Shown here: one piece after another, positions 1 to 10,900 of the stretch
Position numbering within the stretch: position 1 is the stretch's first letter
Layout of the letters: the number at the start of each line of letters is the position of its first letter
Origin: Scenedesmus sp. PABB004
Taxonomy: Eukaryota
NCBI GenBank assembly: GCA_014905635.1
Contig: CM026547.1
Span: forward strand, 124,001-188,000
Reading direction: 5' to 3'
Length of the DNA stretch: 64,000 nt
Notes under the pieces: model-generated
Told to the model about the DNA's origin: nothing
Database searches by the model: none
What the model saw: the letters and a program-made list of their open reading frames with translations, nothing else
Translations under genes and position numbers: made by a program

Positions 1-348
1 GCCGACCGTCTGAAAACCACGCCGACCGTCTGAAAATCCGTACGCTCGGACACACGCAGCGGTCACCCGCGCCCGGCGAGAGCCTCCCGCGATGTGCACA
101 GCCGGCGGTGATCGGGCGACTGGGGCGCGCGCGCTGCCGGCAGCCCCAAGCCGGCGCGCGCCGCGATGGGCAGCCTGCGAGGCGCGCGTGGTGCGTGCGT
201 CGCGGCCGCTCGGACCGCGCACTCCGCGCCGGGCGCGTTCCGGAAGATTCAAGCCGCCGCCCGCCCCGCGCGCCCCGCCCCCGCCCCGCCCCGCCCCGCC
301 CGACCCGTCAGGCGCCTCGGCTGAGGGCGTGACGGGCGCGCTGGGTGC

Positions 349-1930
349 ATGGCGCCGGAGCCGGAGCCGCCGCCGCAGCCCGCGGCCGGAGCAGCGGCGC
401 CGCGGCAGGCGCCCGCCGGCGGCGGCTTCGCGTACCAGGAGGTGGGGGCGGGCGCGCCAGGACCTGCCGGGGCACGACTGCACCCAGTGCCGCCGCCGCC
501 GGCGCGCCCGCGCCGTGCGGCGGGCGCAGCCGCAACCGCAGCCCGCCGGCGGCCGAGTGCCACACCGCGGCGGGCCGGGCCCTGGCTGCGCAGCGCCGTG
601 GATGCCAGCGAGGCGGCCATGCGTCTGCGCAAGCCCTCAGCTCCTGCAGCGGGAGGTCGCCGGCGCTGCGGTCCCTGGCGGAGCGGCTACGGCTGGCGCT
701 GGCCGCGCTGACCGCCGCCGGCGACGCGACGGTGGAGGCGACCTCGCAGCCATGGAGGCGGGAGGCGCTCGTGGTGCTGCGCCATGGCAGCCTGCGCCAT
801 GGCAGCCTGCCACGAGCGCCTCCAGCGGCACCTCGCGCGGCCGCGCGGCGCGGCGGCGGCGGCGGCGGCGCCCGACTGGCAGCCGGATGCCGTGCAGGCC
901 TGTTGGGCGACTGCGGCGCCCGACTGACGGCCGCGCGCGGCCACCTGGCGGCCGCCGCAGCGGCCGCGCAGGGTCGCGCTGCGCCAGCGCCGCCGGCCCA
1001 GCAGCAGCAACAGCAGCAGCCGCCGCCCGCGCCGCGCACGCCCGGGGAGGCGGCGGCGGCTGTCGCGGCGCTGCGTCGCGAGGCCTCGGCCGGCGGGCGC
1101 CGCGCGGTGTGCGCGACGCTCGAGGCGGCGCTGGCTGCGGCGACCGCCGCCGGCGCGGCGACCGCCGCCGGCGCCGGCGTCGCCCGGCGGCCGCAGCGGC
1201 GGCAGGCACCCGCCGCAGCGCGCCGGCGGCGTGCGGCAGCACCCCGACGTGCTCGTCGCGGTCGCGGGCGCGTGCAAGGTGCTGCGCGCCCTGCGCTCGC
1301 GGCACGCCGCGCGCGTGGTGCTGCCCAAGCGGCGCGCCTCCACGCTGGCGCCAGGTGCAGGTGCTGGATCCAGCACCTGCACCTCTGTCCGCCTCGGGCA
1401 CGCAGGCGCTGGATGCTGCGCTGCGCGCGCGCCTGGCCGGGGCGCCCGCCGCGGGCCAGCCGGCCGGCCAGCCGCCGCCGCCCAGCACCGCCCCGCCGGG
1501 CGGAGGCGCCCCGCCGCCCGCGCCGCCGTCCCAGCGGGACTATCAAAGTATGCATCCCAAACGGGGTCTATGAATCAAAGTATGTGTCCCAGACGGGGTC
1601 ATAGACCCCGCTTGGGATGCATGCTTTAATTTTGGCCGGCGCCCCGGGCGCGCGCGCGGCGTGCTGCATGCCAACTCAAAGGTCAACCGAGCCCGCAAAG
1701 CGGCTCGTTGACATTTGAGTTGGCGGCGCTGCAGGTGCGCGTGCGCGTCGAGGGCGCCACCGACCCCGCCCCGCGCCGCGGCCAGCGACTGCCGGCAGAG
1801 CACCGCAGTGGCGGCAGCGCGGCGGCTGCTCTGCGACGCGCTGGCGCCGCACAGCGTGGCCGACGAGGCGGCGCTTGACGCGCTGCCGCTCGACCCGTGC
1901 GAGCTGCGCGGCGTGGAGGGCCTGCCGCCA
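349..1930 (+). CDS. Possible spliced hypothetical gene (or gene remnant) interleaved with the hairpin cluster
   Basis: ATG at 349 (MAPEPEPPPQ...FAYQE) is followed by a GT donor. Protein-like segments occur downstream (HPDVLVAVAGACKVLRAL; LLCDALAPHSVADEAALDALPLDPCELRGVEG). No family recognised and the exon chain is not resolved. Confidence 0.25.
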
Positions 1931-2679
1931 AGTCGCGGCACAAATCATGCGCGCCCGGCCTGGGTCAGGGTGATTTGTGCCGCGACTTGGCGGCAGGGCC
2001 CGGGCTGCACGCGCGTCGCGCACCGCCGCATCGCGCAGCGGCGCTGCCCCAACGCGCCGCGCCACCGCAACGCGCGGCGGTCTTTATTCTTATCATGCGC
2101 TTCGCCGCGTAGAATAGAATAAGGACCGCCGCGCACCGCGACGTGCGCGGGATTGAGCGCCACCGCAGCTTTGGCAGCAGGGGCGGCCGGGACGGCCCGG
2201 CGGCGGCGACTGCGTGCATCATGTGCTGGGCAATGCATTCGCATGTAGTTTGCTTGCGTGCCGTGCAGAGTGTGCGTGGCGGCTGCGGAAGCACGGGCCG
2301 CTGAAGCAGCGCGCGCTGCATGACCTGGCCGTACGCAGTCAACTGGATGGCGGCATGCTGCCGCCGTACGCAGTCAACTGGATGGCAGCATGCAGCGTGC
2401 TGCGATCCAGTTGACTGCGTACGGCCAGGCCGGCATGCATGCCGCGATCCAGTTGACTGCGTACGGCCAGGTCTTTGTGCGCGGGCGCGTCCGGCCGCAC
2501 GCGCGCCTGCCCGCCGACCTGCGGTGCTCGTCCATCATCATCACCGCGGCGACGCGCCGGCGGCAAGTGATGATGGACGAGCACCGCACAAGCATCAATT
2601 GTACATGCACCGCAGCTTTTCCATGCGGGCCGCGCACATGGCGCATCACGCATTGAGAAGCTGCGGGGCATGTACGGTT
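761..2679 (+). ncRNA. Cluster of stem-loops, candidate polycistronic miRNA/small-RNA precursor
   Basis: Inverted repeats read directly at 761-823, 1353-1384, 1542-1630, 1670-1724, 1921-1997, 2072-2134, 2322-2473, 2520-2588 and 2597-2679. Function is inferred. Confidence 0.55.
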
Positions 2680-3488
2680 TGCTGCAGTGCCCCGGGTGCA
2701 CGGTCGCCGCGCCGCGCGACGACGACGCGACGCGGCGCGCAACATTCGCGCGCTCACGCTGCACGCGTTGTCTGACGCGCGCGCACGGGAGCCGCGGGGG
2801 CTGACCGCGCCGGCAGCAGGGGGCTGACCACCGCGCCGCGCGTGCTGCGCCGCAGGCAAGCGCGCGTGCCGCGCCGGCGCCGGCGCTGCGGGCGCCGCGC
2901 CCCCGCGCGGCACCTCGTCCGGCCGGGGCGCGTTCCTGGAGGAGCAGGAGGGCGAGGAGGACGTGGCGGGCGGGCCGGAGGAGAGCGCGCCAGCGCCCGC
3001 GGGCGGCGGCGCCAGCGCGGCAGGGCGGCCGGGCCCGCGGGCTGCGCGGCAGCTTCGCGGCCGGCCAGGCGCCGGCGGCGAGCCTGCTGCGGAGTAGCGG
3101 GACGGCCCCCCGCAGCTGCGCATGGAGCCTGGAGGTGACCGGCGGTCCCCTGTGCCAGGCGATGTGCGCACCTTGGCCGCGAGCTCGCGCAGCGCAGACA
3201 GCCGGCGCCCCTCCGCTCGGCAACTGCAAACTCAGCGTCGTGCGCAGACGGCCGGGCGCTGCTCTGGCTCCGGGGTTTGAGGCCCGGTTGTGCTGGGGGC
3301 CTCGCAGTCGCCTCCCGAGCCCCCGGCCGCGCCCCACGCCACTGCCTCGCCGCCCCGACACCCGGGCCGTGCCCGCACGCGCCGCCGAGCCAGCACCGAG
3401 CGAGCTCCGTGCGCGGCTAGCCGGGCGCCATCACGCGTTTGCACCGCCCCGCCCGCGCCCCCGGACCGCCCGGGAGCGGGGCGACACG

Positions 3489-4472
3489 ATGAGGGCGGGC
3501 TGCTGCTCCCACTGCCGGGCGACGTCGAGCCCCTGCTGGCGCAGGTGGGCGCCGTGCGGGGCGCGATGCTCCCCCGGCCAACAACGCGCCTCGGCGCGCG
3601 CAGGCGCTCCGCGCGCCCGTTCCCGGGCGTCCCGAGCTCTCGGGCGGCCCAGGACGGCGCGGGCGGGGCCCGGACGGCCGCGGCGGGGGCTCGCTGACCA
3701 GGCACCAGCGCCCGAGCCAGCCCGCCCCCCGAGCTCATCCGGCCTCCCCCCGACCCGCCGCAGGGGGCCGCCCGGCAAGCCCATCCTGTGCAACGCCTGC
3801 GGCGCGCACTACCTCAGCAAAAAGAGCCTCGACGGCTACATGCCCAAGCACGCAGCGGCGCGCGCCGACGCGGCCAACGCGCCGCACCTCGCGCACGCGC
3901 AGCAGGTGCTCGCCGCGCAGGCGGCGCAGCAGCAGCACAGCCACTCGTCCAGGTGCGCGCGCGGCGCGCGGCGGCACGCTGGCAGCCGCGCGCGCGCGCC
4001 GTGCGGCGCGCTGCGGCGAGGGCGGCGCGGCGCGGGGGCGCGTGCAGATCGCGCGGCCGCTGCTGCGCAGGTACAACAACGGCGACCTGTACCCCGGCTA
4101 CGCGCCGAGCAAGCGCCACTGGTCGCTCGCGCACCTGCCGACCGACAGCAGCAGCGGCGCGAGCAGCCTCTGCAAGGAGGCCGCCGTCGACGACCAGGCG
4201 ACCGAGTGCAGCAGCAAGCGGCCGCGCCTGGTGTGCTGCCGCGTGTACGAGGTGCGCGGTGTGGCTGGCGGCGGTGGCTGGCCGCGCCCCGCCTCACGCG
4301 CGCGCGCGCGCCGCCTCACGCGCGCGCGCTGCCCGCCGCGCCGCAGATCGACCCCGCCAACGCGAGCGCGCTGCGGCTGCTGAAGACGTTTGAGACGTCG
4401 GACGGCGTCGTGCTCACCGTCATCCGGCGGCCCCGCAAGCAGGCCAAGCCGCGCGCGTGCGCCGTCGCGTGA
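3489..4472 (+). CDS. GATA zinc-finger transcription factor (about 4 exons)
   Basis: Spliced CSHCRATSSPCWR|RGPPGKPILCNACGAHY gives C-x2-C-x18-C-x2-C; GPPxKPxLCNACG resembles plant GATA26/27-type fingers. TGTAA at 5165-5169. Confidence 0.85.
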   Translation: MRAGCCSHCRATSSPCWRRWAPCGARCSPGQQRASARAGAPRARSRASRALGRPRTARAGPGRPRRGLADQAPAPEPARPPSSSGLPPTRRRGPPGKPILCNACGAHYLSKKSLDGYMPKHAAARADAANAPHLAHAQQVLAAQAAQQQHSHSSRCARGARRHAGSRARAPCGALRRGRRGAGARADRAAAAAQVQQRRPVPRLRAEQAPLVARAPADRQQQRREQPLQGGRRRRPGDRVQQQAAAPGVLPRVRGARCGWRRWLAAPRLTRARAPPHARALPAAPQIDPANASALRLLKTFETSDGVVLTVIRRPRKQAKPRACAVA

Positions 4473-5642
4473 GCCGCCGGCGCGCACCCGCGGTGCACGC
4501 GCGCGCGGGCGGCGGCGGGCCCAGGGAGAGCCCATTCGTTTGACCGCAGCAGCAGGCAGTCGACCTGACCCCCTCCCTAAACCGGCGCGGCAGCTGCCGT
4601 CGCCCCCCGTGTACCAGTATTGGGCGCAGCGGCGCCCCGCGGCGGCGGCGCCCAATGCCGCGCCCGCCGCCCGGGGCGCCCTTGACCGGGGGTGGCTGAA
4701 ACATGCACCCCCGCGCACTTTTTTCGCGCGTGCGCCGCGCCGCGTCGCCCTGCGGCGCGGCGCGGCGCGCCGGCAGGATGCCGCTGCGGCGCGCGGCGGC
4801 GGGCCTGCGCCGCGCCGCCGCAGCGTGTTTGTGTGTGTGGGTGACTGGCCAGCAGCAGGGCTGGCGGTGTGTTTTCGTGCCCGCGTCGGAGCCACCTCGC
4901 TGGCGCTGCAGCAGCCTTCTGCAGCCGGCGGGTGGGCCGGGCGCGCGCGCCGCCCGCGCGGCGCCGCCGACGCGCGGGTGGTGTGGTAGGTCGTGGTGAC
5001 GGGGCGTGGCAAACGAACGCAACGCGGGCAGCGGGCGGCGTGTGCGGGGGCGTGCGCAGCTCTTCCGGCGCGGCATCTTGACCTGGGGGCGCGCGTGCGT
5101 GGTGTACCACCAACGGGGCGCATCGTGGGCCCTCCGCCTCTTCACGTGTGTGTGTGCGCGTGGCTGTAAACTAGTGGCGGGCGCGGCGGCCCCTGCATGC
5201 ATCTGGGTGCATGCGCGGGCGGCGGCTTGCCTGCCGGACCCCTGACGGCCTCGAGGGACTGTTTGACTCCTCGACCCCTTGACATCATCATGAATGTACC
5301 CTCCTAGGCTCCGCGCGCGTGCGTGCGCGCCGCCGCCCTGCAGCCAGGGCGCGCGGCGCGCACGCGCGCGCGCGCGCGCTTTTCCCGGGCAGGGCGGGCG
5401 GGGGGCGCGCTGGCGGGGTGATCGGCGGCGCCACGCGACGCGACGCACGCGGCGGAGGGGCGCATGAAGAACGGAGCGGAACGCGGGCGGCGAGGTGACC
5501 GCGCGCTAGCCCTTCCTTCCCCTCCCGCCGCAACTCTCTCTCGCTCTCTCGCCCTCTCCCGCACCCGCGCGCGGCGCCAGCATGCAGCCCGCCGCCGTGC
5601 ACCGCGCCAGCCCCGCGCCGCGGCTCGTGCTGCTCGTGCTGC

Positions 5643-7939: not shown

Positions 7940-10900
7940 CTACCTGCTGAGCCCCGGGAAGATGAAACGGCCGGGGCTCGTGACCTTGCCGGGGCTCGCC
8001 GCCAGCCCCCCGGCCTGCCGCGGCGGCTGTAGCGGCGACAGCGGCGCCGGCGCCTGCTGCTGCTGCTGCCCCTGCGCGGCGCCCGCCGGCGGGCCGCCGC
8101 CGTCGTCGTCGTCGGGGCCGTCCAGCGCGCCGTCGTGCGCCTCGTCGCACTCCAGGTCAACCTCGCCGTCGTCGCCCAGCGCCGCGGCCTGGTCGGCGGG
8201 GTGCCGCACGTCGGGCATGTCGACGTCGCCGTCGGGGCCGCCCAGCACCAGCACGCGCTGCGGCCGGCGCCGGGCCGCCGCCGCCCAGGCCGTCGCCGCC
8301 TGCGGCAGCAGCGCCGCCACGCCCGGCGCGCCGCCGCTGGCGCCCGCCTCGGCCGCCATCGCCGCGCTGGCCAGGCTGCCCAGCAGGTCGCGCGCCGCCG
8401 CCTCGCCCGCGCCGGCGCCGGCCGCGGGGGCGCCGCCGCTGCGGCCGCGGCCCCAGGAGGCGGCGCCGCCCTGCTGCTGCTGCCCCTGCTGCCCCTGTTG
8501 CTCCTGCTGCTCCTGCTGCTCCTGCTGCTCCTGCTCGGCGCCCCAGGCCTGCGCCTGGTGCCGCCGCGCCGCGCCCGGGCTGCCACCGCCGCTGCCGCCG
8601 CCGGCGCCGGCGCCGTCGCCGTCGCCATCGCCCTCGCCGCCGTCGCCGCCGCTGTCGCGGCTGTCGTCTCCGTTGCTGCCGTCGCTGCCGCTGCTGCTGG
8701 TGGGCTCGTGGGGCATGTGCGCCGCGCGGAAGGCGGCGTCCTCCGCCGCGAGCTTGCAGCGCAGCGAGCAGTAGCGCGACTCCGCGTCGCGCAGGCTGCG
8801 CCCGTCGGCGACGCACCGCCCCGCGAGCTGGCGGCGCACCTTGTTCTGCTGCGGCCGCGGGCGCAGGTAGAGCACCGCCTGGCCGTTGAGCGGGTACGCC
8901 TGCACGCCGCTCACGTCGGCGACGCCCGCAACGTCGGCCGCGCGCACAAAGTGAAAGTCGGTCGACACCTGCTGGCTCCGGCTCACGTGCAGCAGGCCCG
9001 GCAGCAGCACCGAGAGCTCGGGGCAGTAGTTGCAGTAGCCCCGCCCCGGGTGCCCGGGGTCAAAGTAGCGGATGAGCTTGTCGCGCCCCGTGCTCGACCG
9101 CCCCTTGCGCGCGCCCGTGCACTTGGGGCAGGGCTTGAGCAGGAAGTCGCACGTCACGAGCTCGTGCAGCCACGCCACGCTGCCGCCGGCGGCGGCGGCG
9201 CCGCCGGCGGCGACGGGCGGGCGCGGCGCGGCGGGCGCGGCGCCGCCGGGCGCGCCCGCGCCGCCGGCCAGGCCCAGCAGGCCGGCCGGCCACGCGGCCG
9301 CCGCGGCGGCCGCGGCGGCCGCGCCGCCGCCGTGCGCCGACAGCAGCGACTGGCGCGCCTGCAGCGCCGCGAGCTGCTGCCGCCAGCCGCTGGCCTGCAG
9401 CTGCACCTGCAGCGTGCCGCCGCCCCCGCCGCCGCCGGGGCCCGCGCCAGACGCGCTGTACGCGGTCGGCAGCAGCTCCAGCTCGGCCGGCTGGTGCGGC
9501 AGCTCGCGCGGCGCCGCGGCGGCGGCGGCCGCCGCGGCCGCCGCGCGCGCGGCGCGGCGCTGCGCCGCCGCCTCGGCCTTGGCCGCGCGCGAGCGCTCCG
9601 CGCGCCGCCGCGTGTCCTCGGCCTTGGCCGCGCGCGCCTCGGCCTTGGCCGCGCGCGCCGCCGCCTCGGCGGCCTCCGCCTCCTCGCGCGCGCGCGCCGC
9701 CGCCGCCTCCTGCGCCGCCGCGCGCAGGTGCGGCGGCGCGCCGCCGTACCTGGCATACTTGTGCGCCGACTTGCGGCCCATCGGCAGCGGCGGCGGCGCG
9801 GCACCGCCCGCAGGCGGCGACGCCAGCGCCGGCGGCGCGTGCGCGGGCGCGGGTGCCGCCTCCTGCGCCTGCTGCGCGCCGGGCGGCTGCGCCCGCGGCG
9901 CCGACTGCTGGCCCTGCTCCTCCTGCCCCTGCTGCCCCGCCGCGCCGTCGCTCGTGGTCGTGCCGCTGGTGGCGGACGCGCGCGCCGCGCCGTCCGCGCC
10001 GCCGCCGCCGCCGCCCGCGTGCGCCGCGCGCGCGGCCGCCTTGGCCGCGGCGCGCGCCGCCTTGGCGGCGGCGGCCGCCGCCTCGGCCGCGGCCGCGGCC
10101 TCCGCCTCTGCCGCGGCCTCGGCTGCCGCGGCGGCCGCCGCGGCGGCGCGGCGCGCGCGCAGCGTGGGCGCGTGGTCGGCGATGAAGCGCGCGTCCTCGC
10201 GCTCGAGCTTGCACGCGACGCTGCAGTACGCGTTGTGCGCGTCGAGCAGGCCGCGGCTGCACCCCGGCCCGGCGCAGACCGCGGGCGGCGTGCCGATCGC
10301 GGCGCCGCGGCTGGGGCGGGGATGGAGGTAGACCATGCGGCCCTTGTTGCCCGCGACGACGTAGCGCTGTATGTCGGCCACGTCCACCGCGGCGGCGAGC
10401 ACCTCCGGCTCGAGGCAGAGCAGCGCGCCGCCCTGGCGCTTGATGCGCAGCAGGCCGGGGCGGTGCGGGAGGCCGGGGCAGAAGCTGCAGAAGGCCGCCG
10501 CGGGGTTGGCGGGGTCGAAGAAGCTCAGCAGGCTGCCCCAGCCCTTGTGCGACGGCGCGCAGCGCGGGCAGGGCGTGAAGAGGTGCTCCGCCAGCAGCAG
10601 CGCGTACAGCCAGCCGCGCTCGCCGCCGACGAGCGCGGGCGGCAGCGCGCCGCCGCCGCCGGCGGCGCCGGCGCCGCCGTCGGCGTCGCCGAGCAGCAGG
10701 CTGCTGCTGCTGCCCGCACGCGAGCCGCGCGCGCCGGAGCGCCGCCCGCCGCTGCCGCTGCGCGCGCCGCTGCGCGAGGCGCTGCCGCGGCTCTTGTTCG
10801 GCCGCGCCGGCGGCAGGCCCGCGGCGCGCTTGGCGCTCGGCCAGGCGTCGAGCATCAGCGCCGCGTGCGGGTCGTCGTCGTCGTCGCCGTCGCGCAGGTT

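Follow-up and report, generated by a model that had tools for sequence, protein, structure and literature searches.

The first 2.8 kb of a 64,000-nt stretch of the Scenedesmus sp. PABB004 genome (assembly GCA_014905635.1, contig CM026547.1, positions 124,001 to 188,000, forward strand; hereafter the window) are occupied by a decayed copy of a transposon encoding a Fanzor nuclease. Nine short hairpins, all made of transposon sequence, lie along this copy between positions 761 and 2675. On the sequence evidence, we see about an even chance that this array is a small-RNA silencer of the Mu killer type, built of many hairpins and directed against the live Fanzor copies, which would have partly escaped it by recoding. 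The proposal draws on the origin of the hairpin arms, the geometry of the events that made them, the dead state of the copy, an excess of hairpins, their overlap with recoded patches of live copies and the presence of RNA interference genes; transcription, dicing and silencing, as well as escape as the cause of the patches, would be the steps connecting these observations.

Inverted duplications along a dead element copy

A first-pass annotation, made from the letters alone, had singled out one of these hairpins, H5 (2322..2473, + strand), as a single stem of about 70 bp in which the same duplex is duplicated in tandem with a G.G mismatch preserved in both units. Folding of 2322-2473 gave exactly such a stem, with 69 pairs including one G-U (-143.8 kcal/mol, z -20.4; none of 200 shuffles was equally stable), a terminal loop of 3 nt and bulges of 6 nt (2426-2431) and 1 nt (2436) on the 3' arm. 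The duplicated motifs were found on the 5' arm (CCGTACGCAGTCAACTGGATGGC, starting at 2329 and 2364) and on the 3' arm (GCGATCCAGTTGACTGCGTACGGCCAGG, starting at 2402 and 2444), and the mismatch at 2349/2446 and 2384/2404. The suggested internal duplication of a hairpin was also upheld, since H5 consists of two antisense followed by two sense copies of element positions ~5095-5135, a segment encoding HAAIQLTAYGRV. Its 5' arm (2322..2397), whose - strand provides the candidate guides, holds the inverted copies 2322-2358 and 2363-2397, 86-89% identical to the minus strand of copy L055. Its 3' arm (2398..2473, + strand) holds the two sense copies, the last of which continues colinear with the element to 2522.

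The units of H5 repeat with a period of 35 nt on the 5' arm versus 42 nt on the 3' arm, and their junctions are mutually reverse-complementary save 7 nt absent on the 5' arm, so that one side must have been copied from the other. Outer and inner duplexes differ by a compensatory pair (2352G-2443C versus 2387A-2401T). Together with the shared G.G mismatch, this pair is impossible from one copying step, and an extra parallel change or a conversion between the tandem units is required. Small RNAs are typically 21 nt long. The spacing of the units along the duplex (35 bp) is no multiple of 21, and the idea that the duplication yields two doses by phasing is therefore unsupported. H5 can hold a 21-nt duplex with at most four mismatches, as expected of a microRNA (miRNA) or hairpin RNA (hpRNA) precursor. 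A precursor of small RNAs stays the best reading, but its proper unit is the whole array, which the annotation had not noticed, and not the lone hairpin. H5 is real but is no stand-alone miRNA gene, and Rfam returned no match across the whole window (4227 families, gathering score).

From 5' to 3', and all on the + strand, the other members start with Hb (761..823; 14-bp outer stem; z -5.6), of complex origin by inversion plus duplication, in which 765-795 repeats element 3434-3464 exactly but inverted. H0 (1353..1384; z -6.2) has a perfect stem of only 14-16 bp. In H1 (1542..1630; z -7.4), antisense arms at 1542-1565 and then 1573-1611 stand against a segment encoding PVWDAYFD, and H2 (1670..1724; z -6.3) covers a segment encoding AGSVTFDL. 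H3 (1921..1997; z -8.9) has 27 perfect bp just 3' of the RuvC-I motif. H4 (2072..2134; z -7.3) lies at a site where copy L059 has an independent hairpin. Beyond H5, H6 (2520..2588; 20-22 bp; z -10.6) spans the catalytic DEH motif and H7 (2601..2675; z -6.7) falls between the zinc-finger halves. When the nine hairpins were scored together, z ranged from -5.6 to -16.9, with the + strand stabler in seven of nine. Stems reach at least 20 bp in H1, H3, H6 and H7, while H2 and H4 are borderline, and H0 and Hb too short, for a 21-nt duplex with at most four mismatches. An excess of G-U over A-C in the stems (6 versus 2) includes edge artefacts and is too weak for use. A tenth hairpin has the opposite polarity and is found at the element's 5' end, immediately before the window starts.

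Every arm of the nine hairpins derives from element sequence. In H0 to H7 an inverted copy (16-50 nt) of downstream sequence was inserted 5' of its original; in most cases upstream sequence was lost, and the joints often show microhomology of a few bases. This geometry is the product expected of template switching (PMC10710096) or fold-back repair (PMC11724301). The hairpins crowd into the conserved 3' half of the Fanzor gene (eight in 1.33 kb), with none in 824-1352. A single detector reported seven hairpins for the first 2.8 kb of the window and none for its other 61 kb; in 38 evenly picked stretches of the genome, 380 kb in total, it reported 15, six of them in one cluster. A derivation as miRNAs from miniature inverted-repeat elements or terminal inverted repeats was considered and rejected, because the stems are internal coding segments and are not hairpins in most copies.

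That an assembly artefact from fold-back chimeric reads produced the array is scarcely credible. A search of sequencing runs for this sequence listed five metagenomes, with small shares, and no RNA run. The hairpin form appeared in no read or contig of four metagenome runs, whose cover is shallow and uninformative on the array, and contigs of three of the four runs cross H5 in plain element form (2298 joined to 2436 or 2573). Against an artefact, substitutions and indels distinguish the arms, the compensatory pair distinguishes inner from outer duplex, deletions and new bases mark the junctions, and nine separate events would be needed.

The copy carrying the array (1..2770, + strand) starts about 35 nt before the window and has kept its 5' end. 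About two thirds of the element are deleted, neither the region of the stop codon nor the 3' end of ~420 nt is present, and the rest is colinear. Retained parts include the 5' terminal region to the first ATG (42..380, + strand; 84% identical to the C24 copy at its 5' end), which may contain a promoter, and a remnant of an SAE2/CtIP-like coding segment (395..493, + strand; 89% to the C24 copy). Outside the hairpins, 52 of 1295 sites (4.0%) carry private bases, making it the oldest of the 20 copies scored. Their even spread over the codon positions (13/17/14) indicates that the copy is dead. With its 3' end absent and its frame broken it is non-autonomous or immobile, as a silencer of the Mu killer type should be.

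The Fanzor-encoding family and its variable patches

The 3' arm of H5, together with the sequence that follows it, has matches of 91-94% identity at 17 other places in the 40-Mb genome, and the complementary target that the annotation had left to be sought could be identified as the Fanzor coding sequence of this transposon family. The element is about 8.5 kb long, with at least 17 copies besides that of the window. Copies share a constant 3' end, many being 5'-truncated or internally deleted, and a structured tail of ~420 nt common to the other copies, situated where an omegaRNA would be expected, ends at this boundary. The last open reading frame (ORF) encodes a Fanzor/TnpB-type nuclease (PF07282, E 1.2e-9, above cut-off). 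Its motifs VGIDPG, DEHRTS, CxxC..CxxC and RDDNAARNI align with seven relatives and represent a split RuvC D-E-D triad and a C-terminal zinc finger. Among solved structures, a TnpB-like protein matched best (E 0.0024), and 11 copies keep an open frame over the C-terminal 306 codons. In a protein search for longer homologues, a word index gave no match and a full HMMER search 36 hits.

The 5' part of the element encodes an SAE2/CtIP C-terminal domain (PF08573, E 2.5e-11, in L073:580-2028, - strand, that is, the C24 copy of genome G000), so that a break-processing cofactor family is found here in the same element as an RNA-guided nuclease. No transposase family was detected in the element frames scanned, and the combination of this segment and the nuclease without a transposase may hint that the element moves by cut-and-recombine repair. 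By eye, the first ORF seemed to contain an OTU-like domain, but Pfam did not support it and it was dropped. No TTTT precedes the displayed 5' ends of copies, and short target duplications are scarce, with one clear case among nine tested. Three pairs (L052/L055, L056/L063 and L057/L061) share 4-7 nt of flank past the common 3' end, a pattern expected of guide-directed target choice. Over 153 pairs, such sharing was not correlated with relatedness (rho 0.06). The truncated copy L067 opens with a 130-nt inverted piece of upstream element sequence, and the element has two 5'-end variants (L071, L072, L062) that differ by a short inversion, both orientations being present at the 5' end of the window copy. 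Patch haplotypes of the Fanzor frame are shuffled among the 15 copies compared, and the four-gamete test fails for 478 of 1120 distant site pairs, which points to frequent recombination or conversion between dispersed copies.

The 20-mer of H5 has 15 genomic sites at three or fewer mismatches, four within H5 and 11 in element copies; at this threshold no site was found outside them, and the reversed control had none. This distribution, as well as the derivation of all arms from the element, leaves very little probability to an ordinary miRNA precursor that regulates a host mRNA and was doubled for dose, even though the stem is long and stable with few mismatches and miRNA-like hairpins exist in host DNA of this genome. 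Counting G-U as half a mismatch, the best 21-mers of H3, H4, H5, H6 and H7 find a pairing site with 0-3 mismatches in each of the 14 copies tested (H3 0-1, H4 1-2, H6 2-3, H7 1.5-2.5; H5 1.5 with 12 of the 14). For H1, whose site is covered by ten copies, the best 21-mer has 0.5 mismatches in six and 4.5-5.5 in three, seven of ten being at two or fewer. The Dicer and Argonaute required for miRNA or hpRNA function are present at the level of domain matches: Piwi (Argonaute-like) domains at three loci, and RNase III (Dicer-like) domains at three loci, two of them in tandem on C7.

Among the 15 hairpin-free copies, variation is bunched in short patches, mostly of third-position changes, and these patches coincide with the stem footprints. 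Third-position diversity was 0.115 inside the footprints versus 0.039 outside, a value reached by 12 of 10,000 random placements. Synonymous shared polymorphism affected 11 of 64 footprint codons versus 21 of 428 elsewhere (p 0.001), non-synonymous shared polymorphism 6 of 64 versus 22 of 428. Within the Fanzor frame, codons ending in A or T bunch together (32 close pairs, against 17.4 expected from amino-acid-matched shuffling) and are abundant in the footprints (15-19 of 59-60 versus 6.7-7.8 expected, four copies; for instance 18 of 59 versus 7.7); the upstream ORF of the element shows no such clustering (5 versus 4.2). Where both arms of a hairpin agree on a codon absent from all copies, the difference was synonymous or conservative in five of five cases, versus 14 of 40 in the spacers (p 0.0095). 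This points to an early origin of the hairpins, followed by change of the family at these sites.

Patches and hairpins would have a single cause if the nuclease attacked its own family. A Fanzor protein using the guide of a copy with an element-like 3' flank would cut other copies at fixed sites; live copies would escape by recoding while the dead copy gathered the products of fold-back repair. The intact catalytic D, E and D and zinc-finger motifs, the 306 open codons in 11 copies and the SAE2/CtIP-like segment carried by the element all fit such self-attack. It is nevertheless improbable, as about ten different guides would be required, and inspection by eye revealed neither an obvious long match between the 3' flanks of the listed copies and a hairpin site nor a common motif beside the patches.

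Possible silencing or repair scars, and hairpins elsewhere

In the proposed course of events, a Fanzor transposon copy would have inserted between two host genes and then lost its 3' end and most of its interior. Short local inverted duplications accumulated in it, presumably through template switching or fold-back repair. Transcription of the + strand, from the 5' end of the element, from a duplicated GATA promoter or by read-through from the upstream gene, would produce one RNA carrying a string of 14-37-bp stems. A Dicer-like enzyme may cut these stems, and the small RNAs of their 5' arms, antisense to the Fanzor mRNA of live copies, would guide an Argonaute in silencing these copies. The hairpins would have been kept, and doubled at H1 and H5, because they damp the element. 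Live copies would have answered with synonymous or conservative changes at the targeted sites; the pattern of these changes is the one observed, and silencing is its proposed cause.

The most serious alternative is that the hairpins are inert scars, by-products of fold-back or template-switch repair at break-prone sites, which we regard as a possible but less probable account. A dead copy would keep all its scars, hairpins would promote further local breaks, and the same fragile sites would leave only synonymous changes wherever the protein must be kept. Yeast breaks repaired with short templated inverted duplications are documented (PMC11724301), as is the creation of hairpins in one step by template switching (PMC10710096), and the window copy, the oldest scored, is full of deletions.

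Events of the same type, mostly of the same polarity, have also occurred elsewhere in the family. Single hairpins of this geometry were found in four of 19 other copies and in one old fragment among eight further loci. In all five the new arm is on the 5' side, and two reuse the sites of H4 and H2 with different junctions and alleles. These fold-back hairpins are in L054 (1844-1945), L059, L061, L070 and L079 (3986-4093). That of L054 is a perfect 51-bp palindrome adjoining a 900-nt deletion, and that of L070 lies in the 3' tail and is absent from the sister copy L081. An additional case is found at a fragment of a long interspersed nuclear element (LINE). The detector itself favours A/T, but an unfiltered scan of the 19 copies, free of this preference, added no copy-specific GC-rich hairpin in the Fanzor region and gave one weak hit, in the 3' tail of L064.

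Inert scars would account poorly for the number and position of the hairpins. Scaling by age from the 19 other copies (four hairpins per 285 private substitutions, hand sum), one or two hairpins were expected in the window copy, an excess of about 5-10-fold (P for nine or more 5e-6 to 1e-4). Likewise, the crowding into the conserved 3' half and the gap at 824-1352 are not predicted by scars, and site-specific fragility is left without a cause. Antisense arms also seem better conserved than sense arms, with 2-3 versus 7 private changes over 238 paired positions by hand count (P 0.015 against the 4% spacer rate).

Several observations weigh against a silencer, however. If the full ~8.4 kb is counted, about five hairpins are expected and the excess falls to P 0.05, and the arm asymmetry falls to P 0.10 once the displaced arm of H1 is counted. 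Hb and H0 are probably too short to be diced, and the best 21-mer of H2 has at least 4.5 mismatches to every copy. Private substitutions in the other copies range from 0.05 to 2.2%, and those with 0.05% indicate that the family moved recently. The single hairpins of other copies suggest that the element, or the genome, makes hairpins readily, and a six-hairpin cluster also occurs in a host-like gene (L135). Since the arms carry many A/T codons, the A/T-rich patches must be older than the present hairpins; when stretches are ranked by A/T content, all five hairpins of other copies fall within the top 5-12%, and fragile sites could thus explain both patches and hairpins. Some A/T patches have no hairpin in the window copy, and host coding frames cluster A/T-ending codons too, although more weakly (643 versus 552). 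Finally, the cut-off between conservative and radical changes and the stem limits were picked after the data had been seen, and several tests are post hoc with small counts.

A silencer could accommodate the older patches if host RNA is spared only when guides match those parts of the mRNA that are sequence-unique and less GC-rich. New hairpins would then keep arising at the same sites, and the patches could pre-date the present ones. The most elaborate version, in which the host built a multiplex array from a captured Fanzor gene by adding guides singly through fold-back while the live transposon escaped by synonymous recoding, is put forward tentatively. If true, fold-back guides arise preferentially and repeatedly at the same unique conserved segments, escape patches are guide-sized, and one genome holds both sides of an arms race between small RNAs and Fanzor; the same process may turn other selfish or dispensable genes, such as that of L135, into arrays. 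Even if the array is inert, short inverted duplications arise repeatedly with one polarity at the same sites, which bears on the origin of new miRNA hairpins.

Downstream of the copy, host DNA (2775..3593, + strand) comprises, in models drawn by eye, the last exon of the upstream gene, an intergenic region and exon 1 of a GATA gene with its splice donor. This segment is repeated upstream of the element (98% over 820 nt; six substitutions in 784 nt), and a further partial copy covers 292 nt at 92%. The GATA zinc-finger gene itself (3489..4472, + strand) was given an approximate model of four exons, with PF00320 at E 0.0011, below cut-off, on exon 2. As the copy stands between two 820-nt host copies that include the GATA first exon, up to three + strand promoters could read into it. 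Divergences in L051:8371-9458 and window 2775-3593 are unequal: 0.8% for the 820-nt direct duplicate, ~8% for the 292-nt copy and 4% for the element copy. This mismatch may reflect a later duplication that captured a promoter, or else conversion from one repeat to the other. The window has ~79% G+C and its genes have short introns; a tRNA-Pro(CGG) called by ARAGORN at 10055-10139, in very GC-rich sequence, is a candidate only.

Three further loci carry comparable hairpins. The cluster of six (L135:3900-6700, that is, G000:C13:1,903,900-1,906,700) is located in and behind a multi-exon gene of unknown family, and several of its hairpins are inverted copies of the gene's own exons or of a paralogue, with the new arm 5'. 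A multicopy source for L135 was searched for and not found, nor was a partner gene for the hairpins of L095. At L142:749-963 (G000:C76:1,250,748-1,250,962), a tRNA-Gly stands 35 nt ahead of a perfect hairpin of ~49 bp, which sits where a truncated LINE-like fragment (zf-RVT, E 2.8e-4) has its 5' junction and is possibly a tRNA-promoted hairpin against a retrotransposon. Three hairpins, one apparently of opposite polarity, lie within 1.5 kb of gene-like sequence at L098:1609-3126 (G000:C77:742,608-744,125), and a search for their source found none.

Comparison with known systems

A close parallel is Mu killer of maize, which arose in a single event and forms one hairpin of ~4 kb (PMC3440606). 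Like the window copy, it derives from a DNA transposon by rearrangement, is non-autonomous and carries coding sequence in inverted duplication; read-through from a flanking gene and silencing of the family in trans have been proposed for it (PMC3440606). Here the single long hairpin is replaced by nine short, miRNA-sized ones, created by separate events along one copy, and silencing is predicted from sequence. The Drosophila hpRNAs directed against selfish genes, among them hp-ODox2, the hp-tHMG cluster and hp-CG4068, are likewise inverted repeats born from their own target, sometimes a transposon, with local arm duplications and clusters of hairpins, and they are backed by data on Dicer-2-dependent small interfering RNAs (PMC10317233). 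Their clusters, however, are tandem copies of one hairpin, whereas the present array takes different parts of the target, in the order of the target. The Stabiliser loci of Antirrhinum are also rearranged transposon copies, which make small RNAs and suppress their family; they consist of direct 5'-end duplications or of two copies head to head, and act on termini and not on coding sequence (10.1101/2024.06.24.600476). Among green algae, the Jordan-derived miRNAs of Volvox come from a transposon and act against it, but their stems are terminal inverted repeats present in every copy (PMC5093975), whereas the candidates described here arose anew, by inversion within the coding sequence of a single dead copy.

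In their formation, the hairpins resemble miRNA hairpins made by template switching (PMC10710096) and fold-back insertions (PMC11724301), which are one-step inverted duplications with microhomology at the joints and similar arm lengths. In the accessible parts of these two reports the events are scattered singles, with no enrichment near transposons in human and no array within one element described. The layout of the target resembles that of the Chlamydomonas Fanzor1 elements CRe-1/2/3, in which the Fanzor gene lies close to a constant 3' end, copies are often truncated at the 5' end or deleted internally, target duplications are occasionally very long and no transposase of their own has been found (PMC3627910). 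Elements of this Helitron2 type are also marked by insertion after TTTT, asymmetric terminal repeats and a related RepHel element. The present element differs in showing no TTTT target at the displayed 5' ends, few short target duplications, an uninterrupted Fanzor C-terminal frame and an SAE2/CtIP-like passenger, and is at most a possible member of that group.

A literature search, largely without subscription journals, found neither such a hairpin array nor hairpin silencing of a Fanzor element, and host control of Fanzor elements is little described. What appears new in this system is that many separate miRNA-sized stems stand in order along one dead gene and would be aimed at a Fanzor. If the array works, it is a natural silencer with many guides; a single genome then shows the guides together with their targets and the escape variants, and the coevolution of small RNAs and transposons becomes directly testable.
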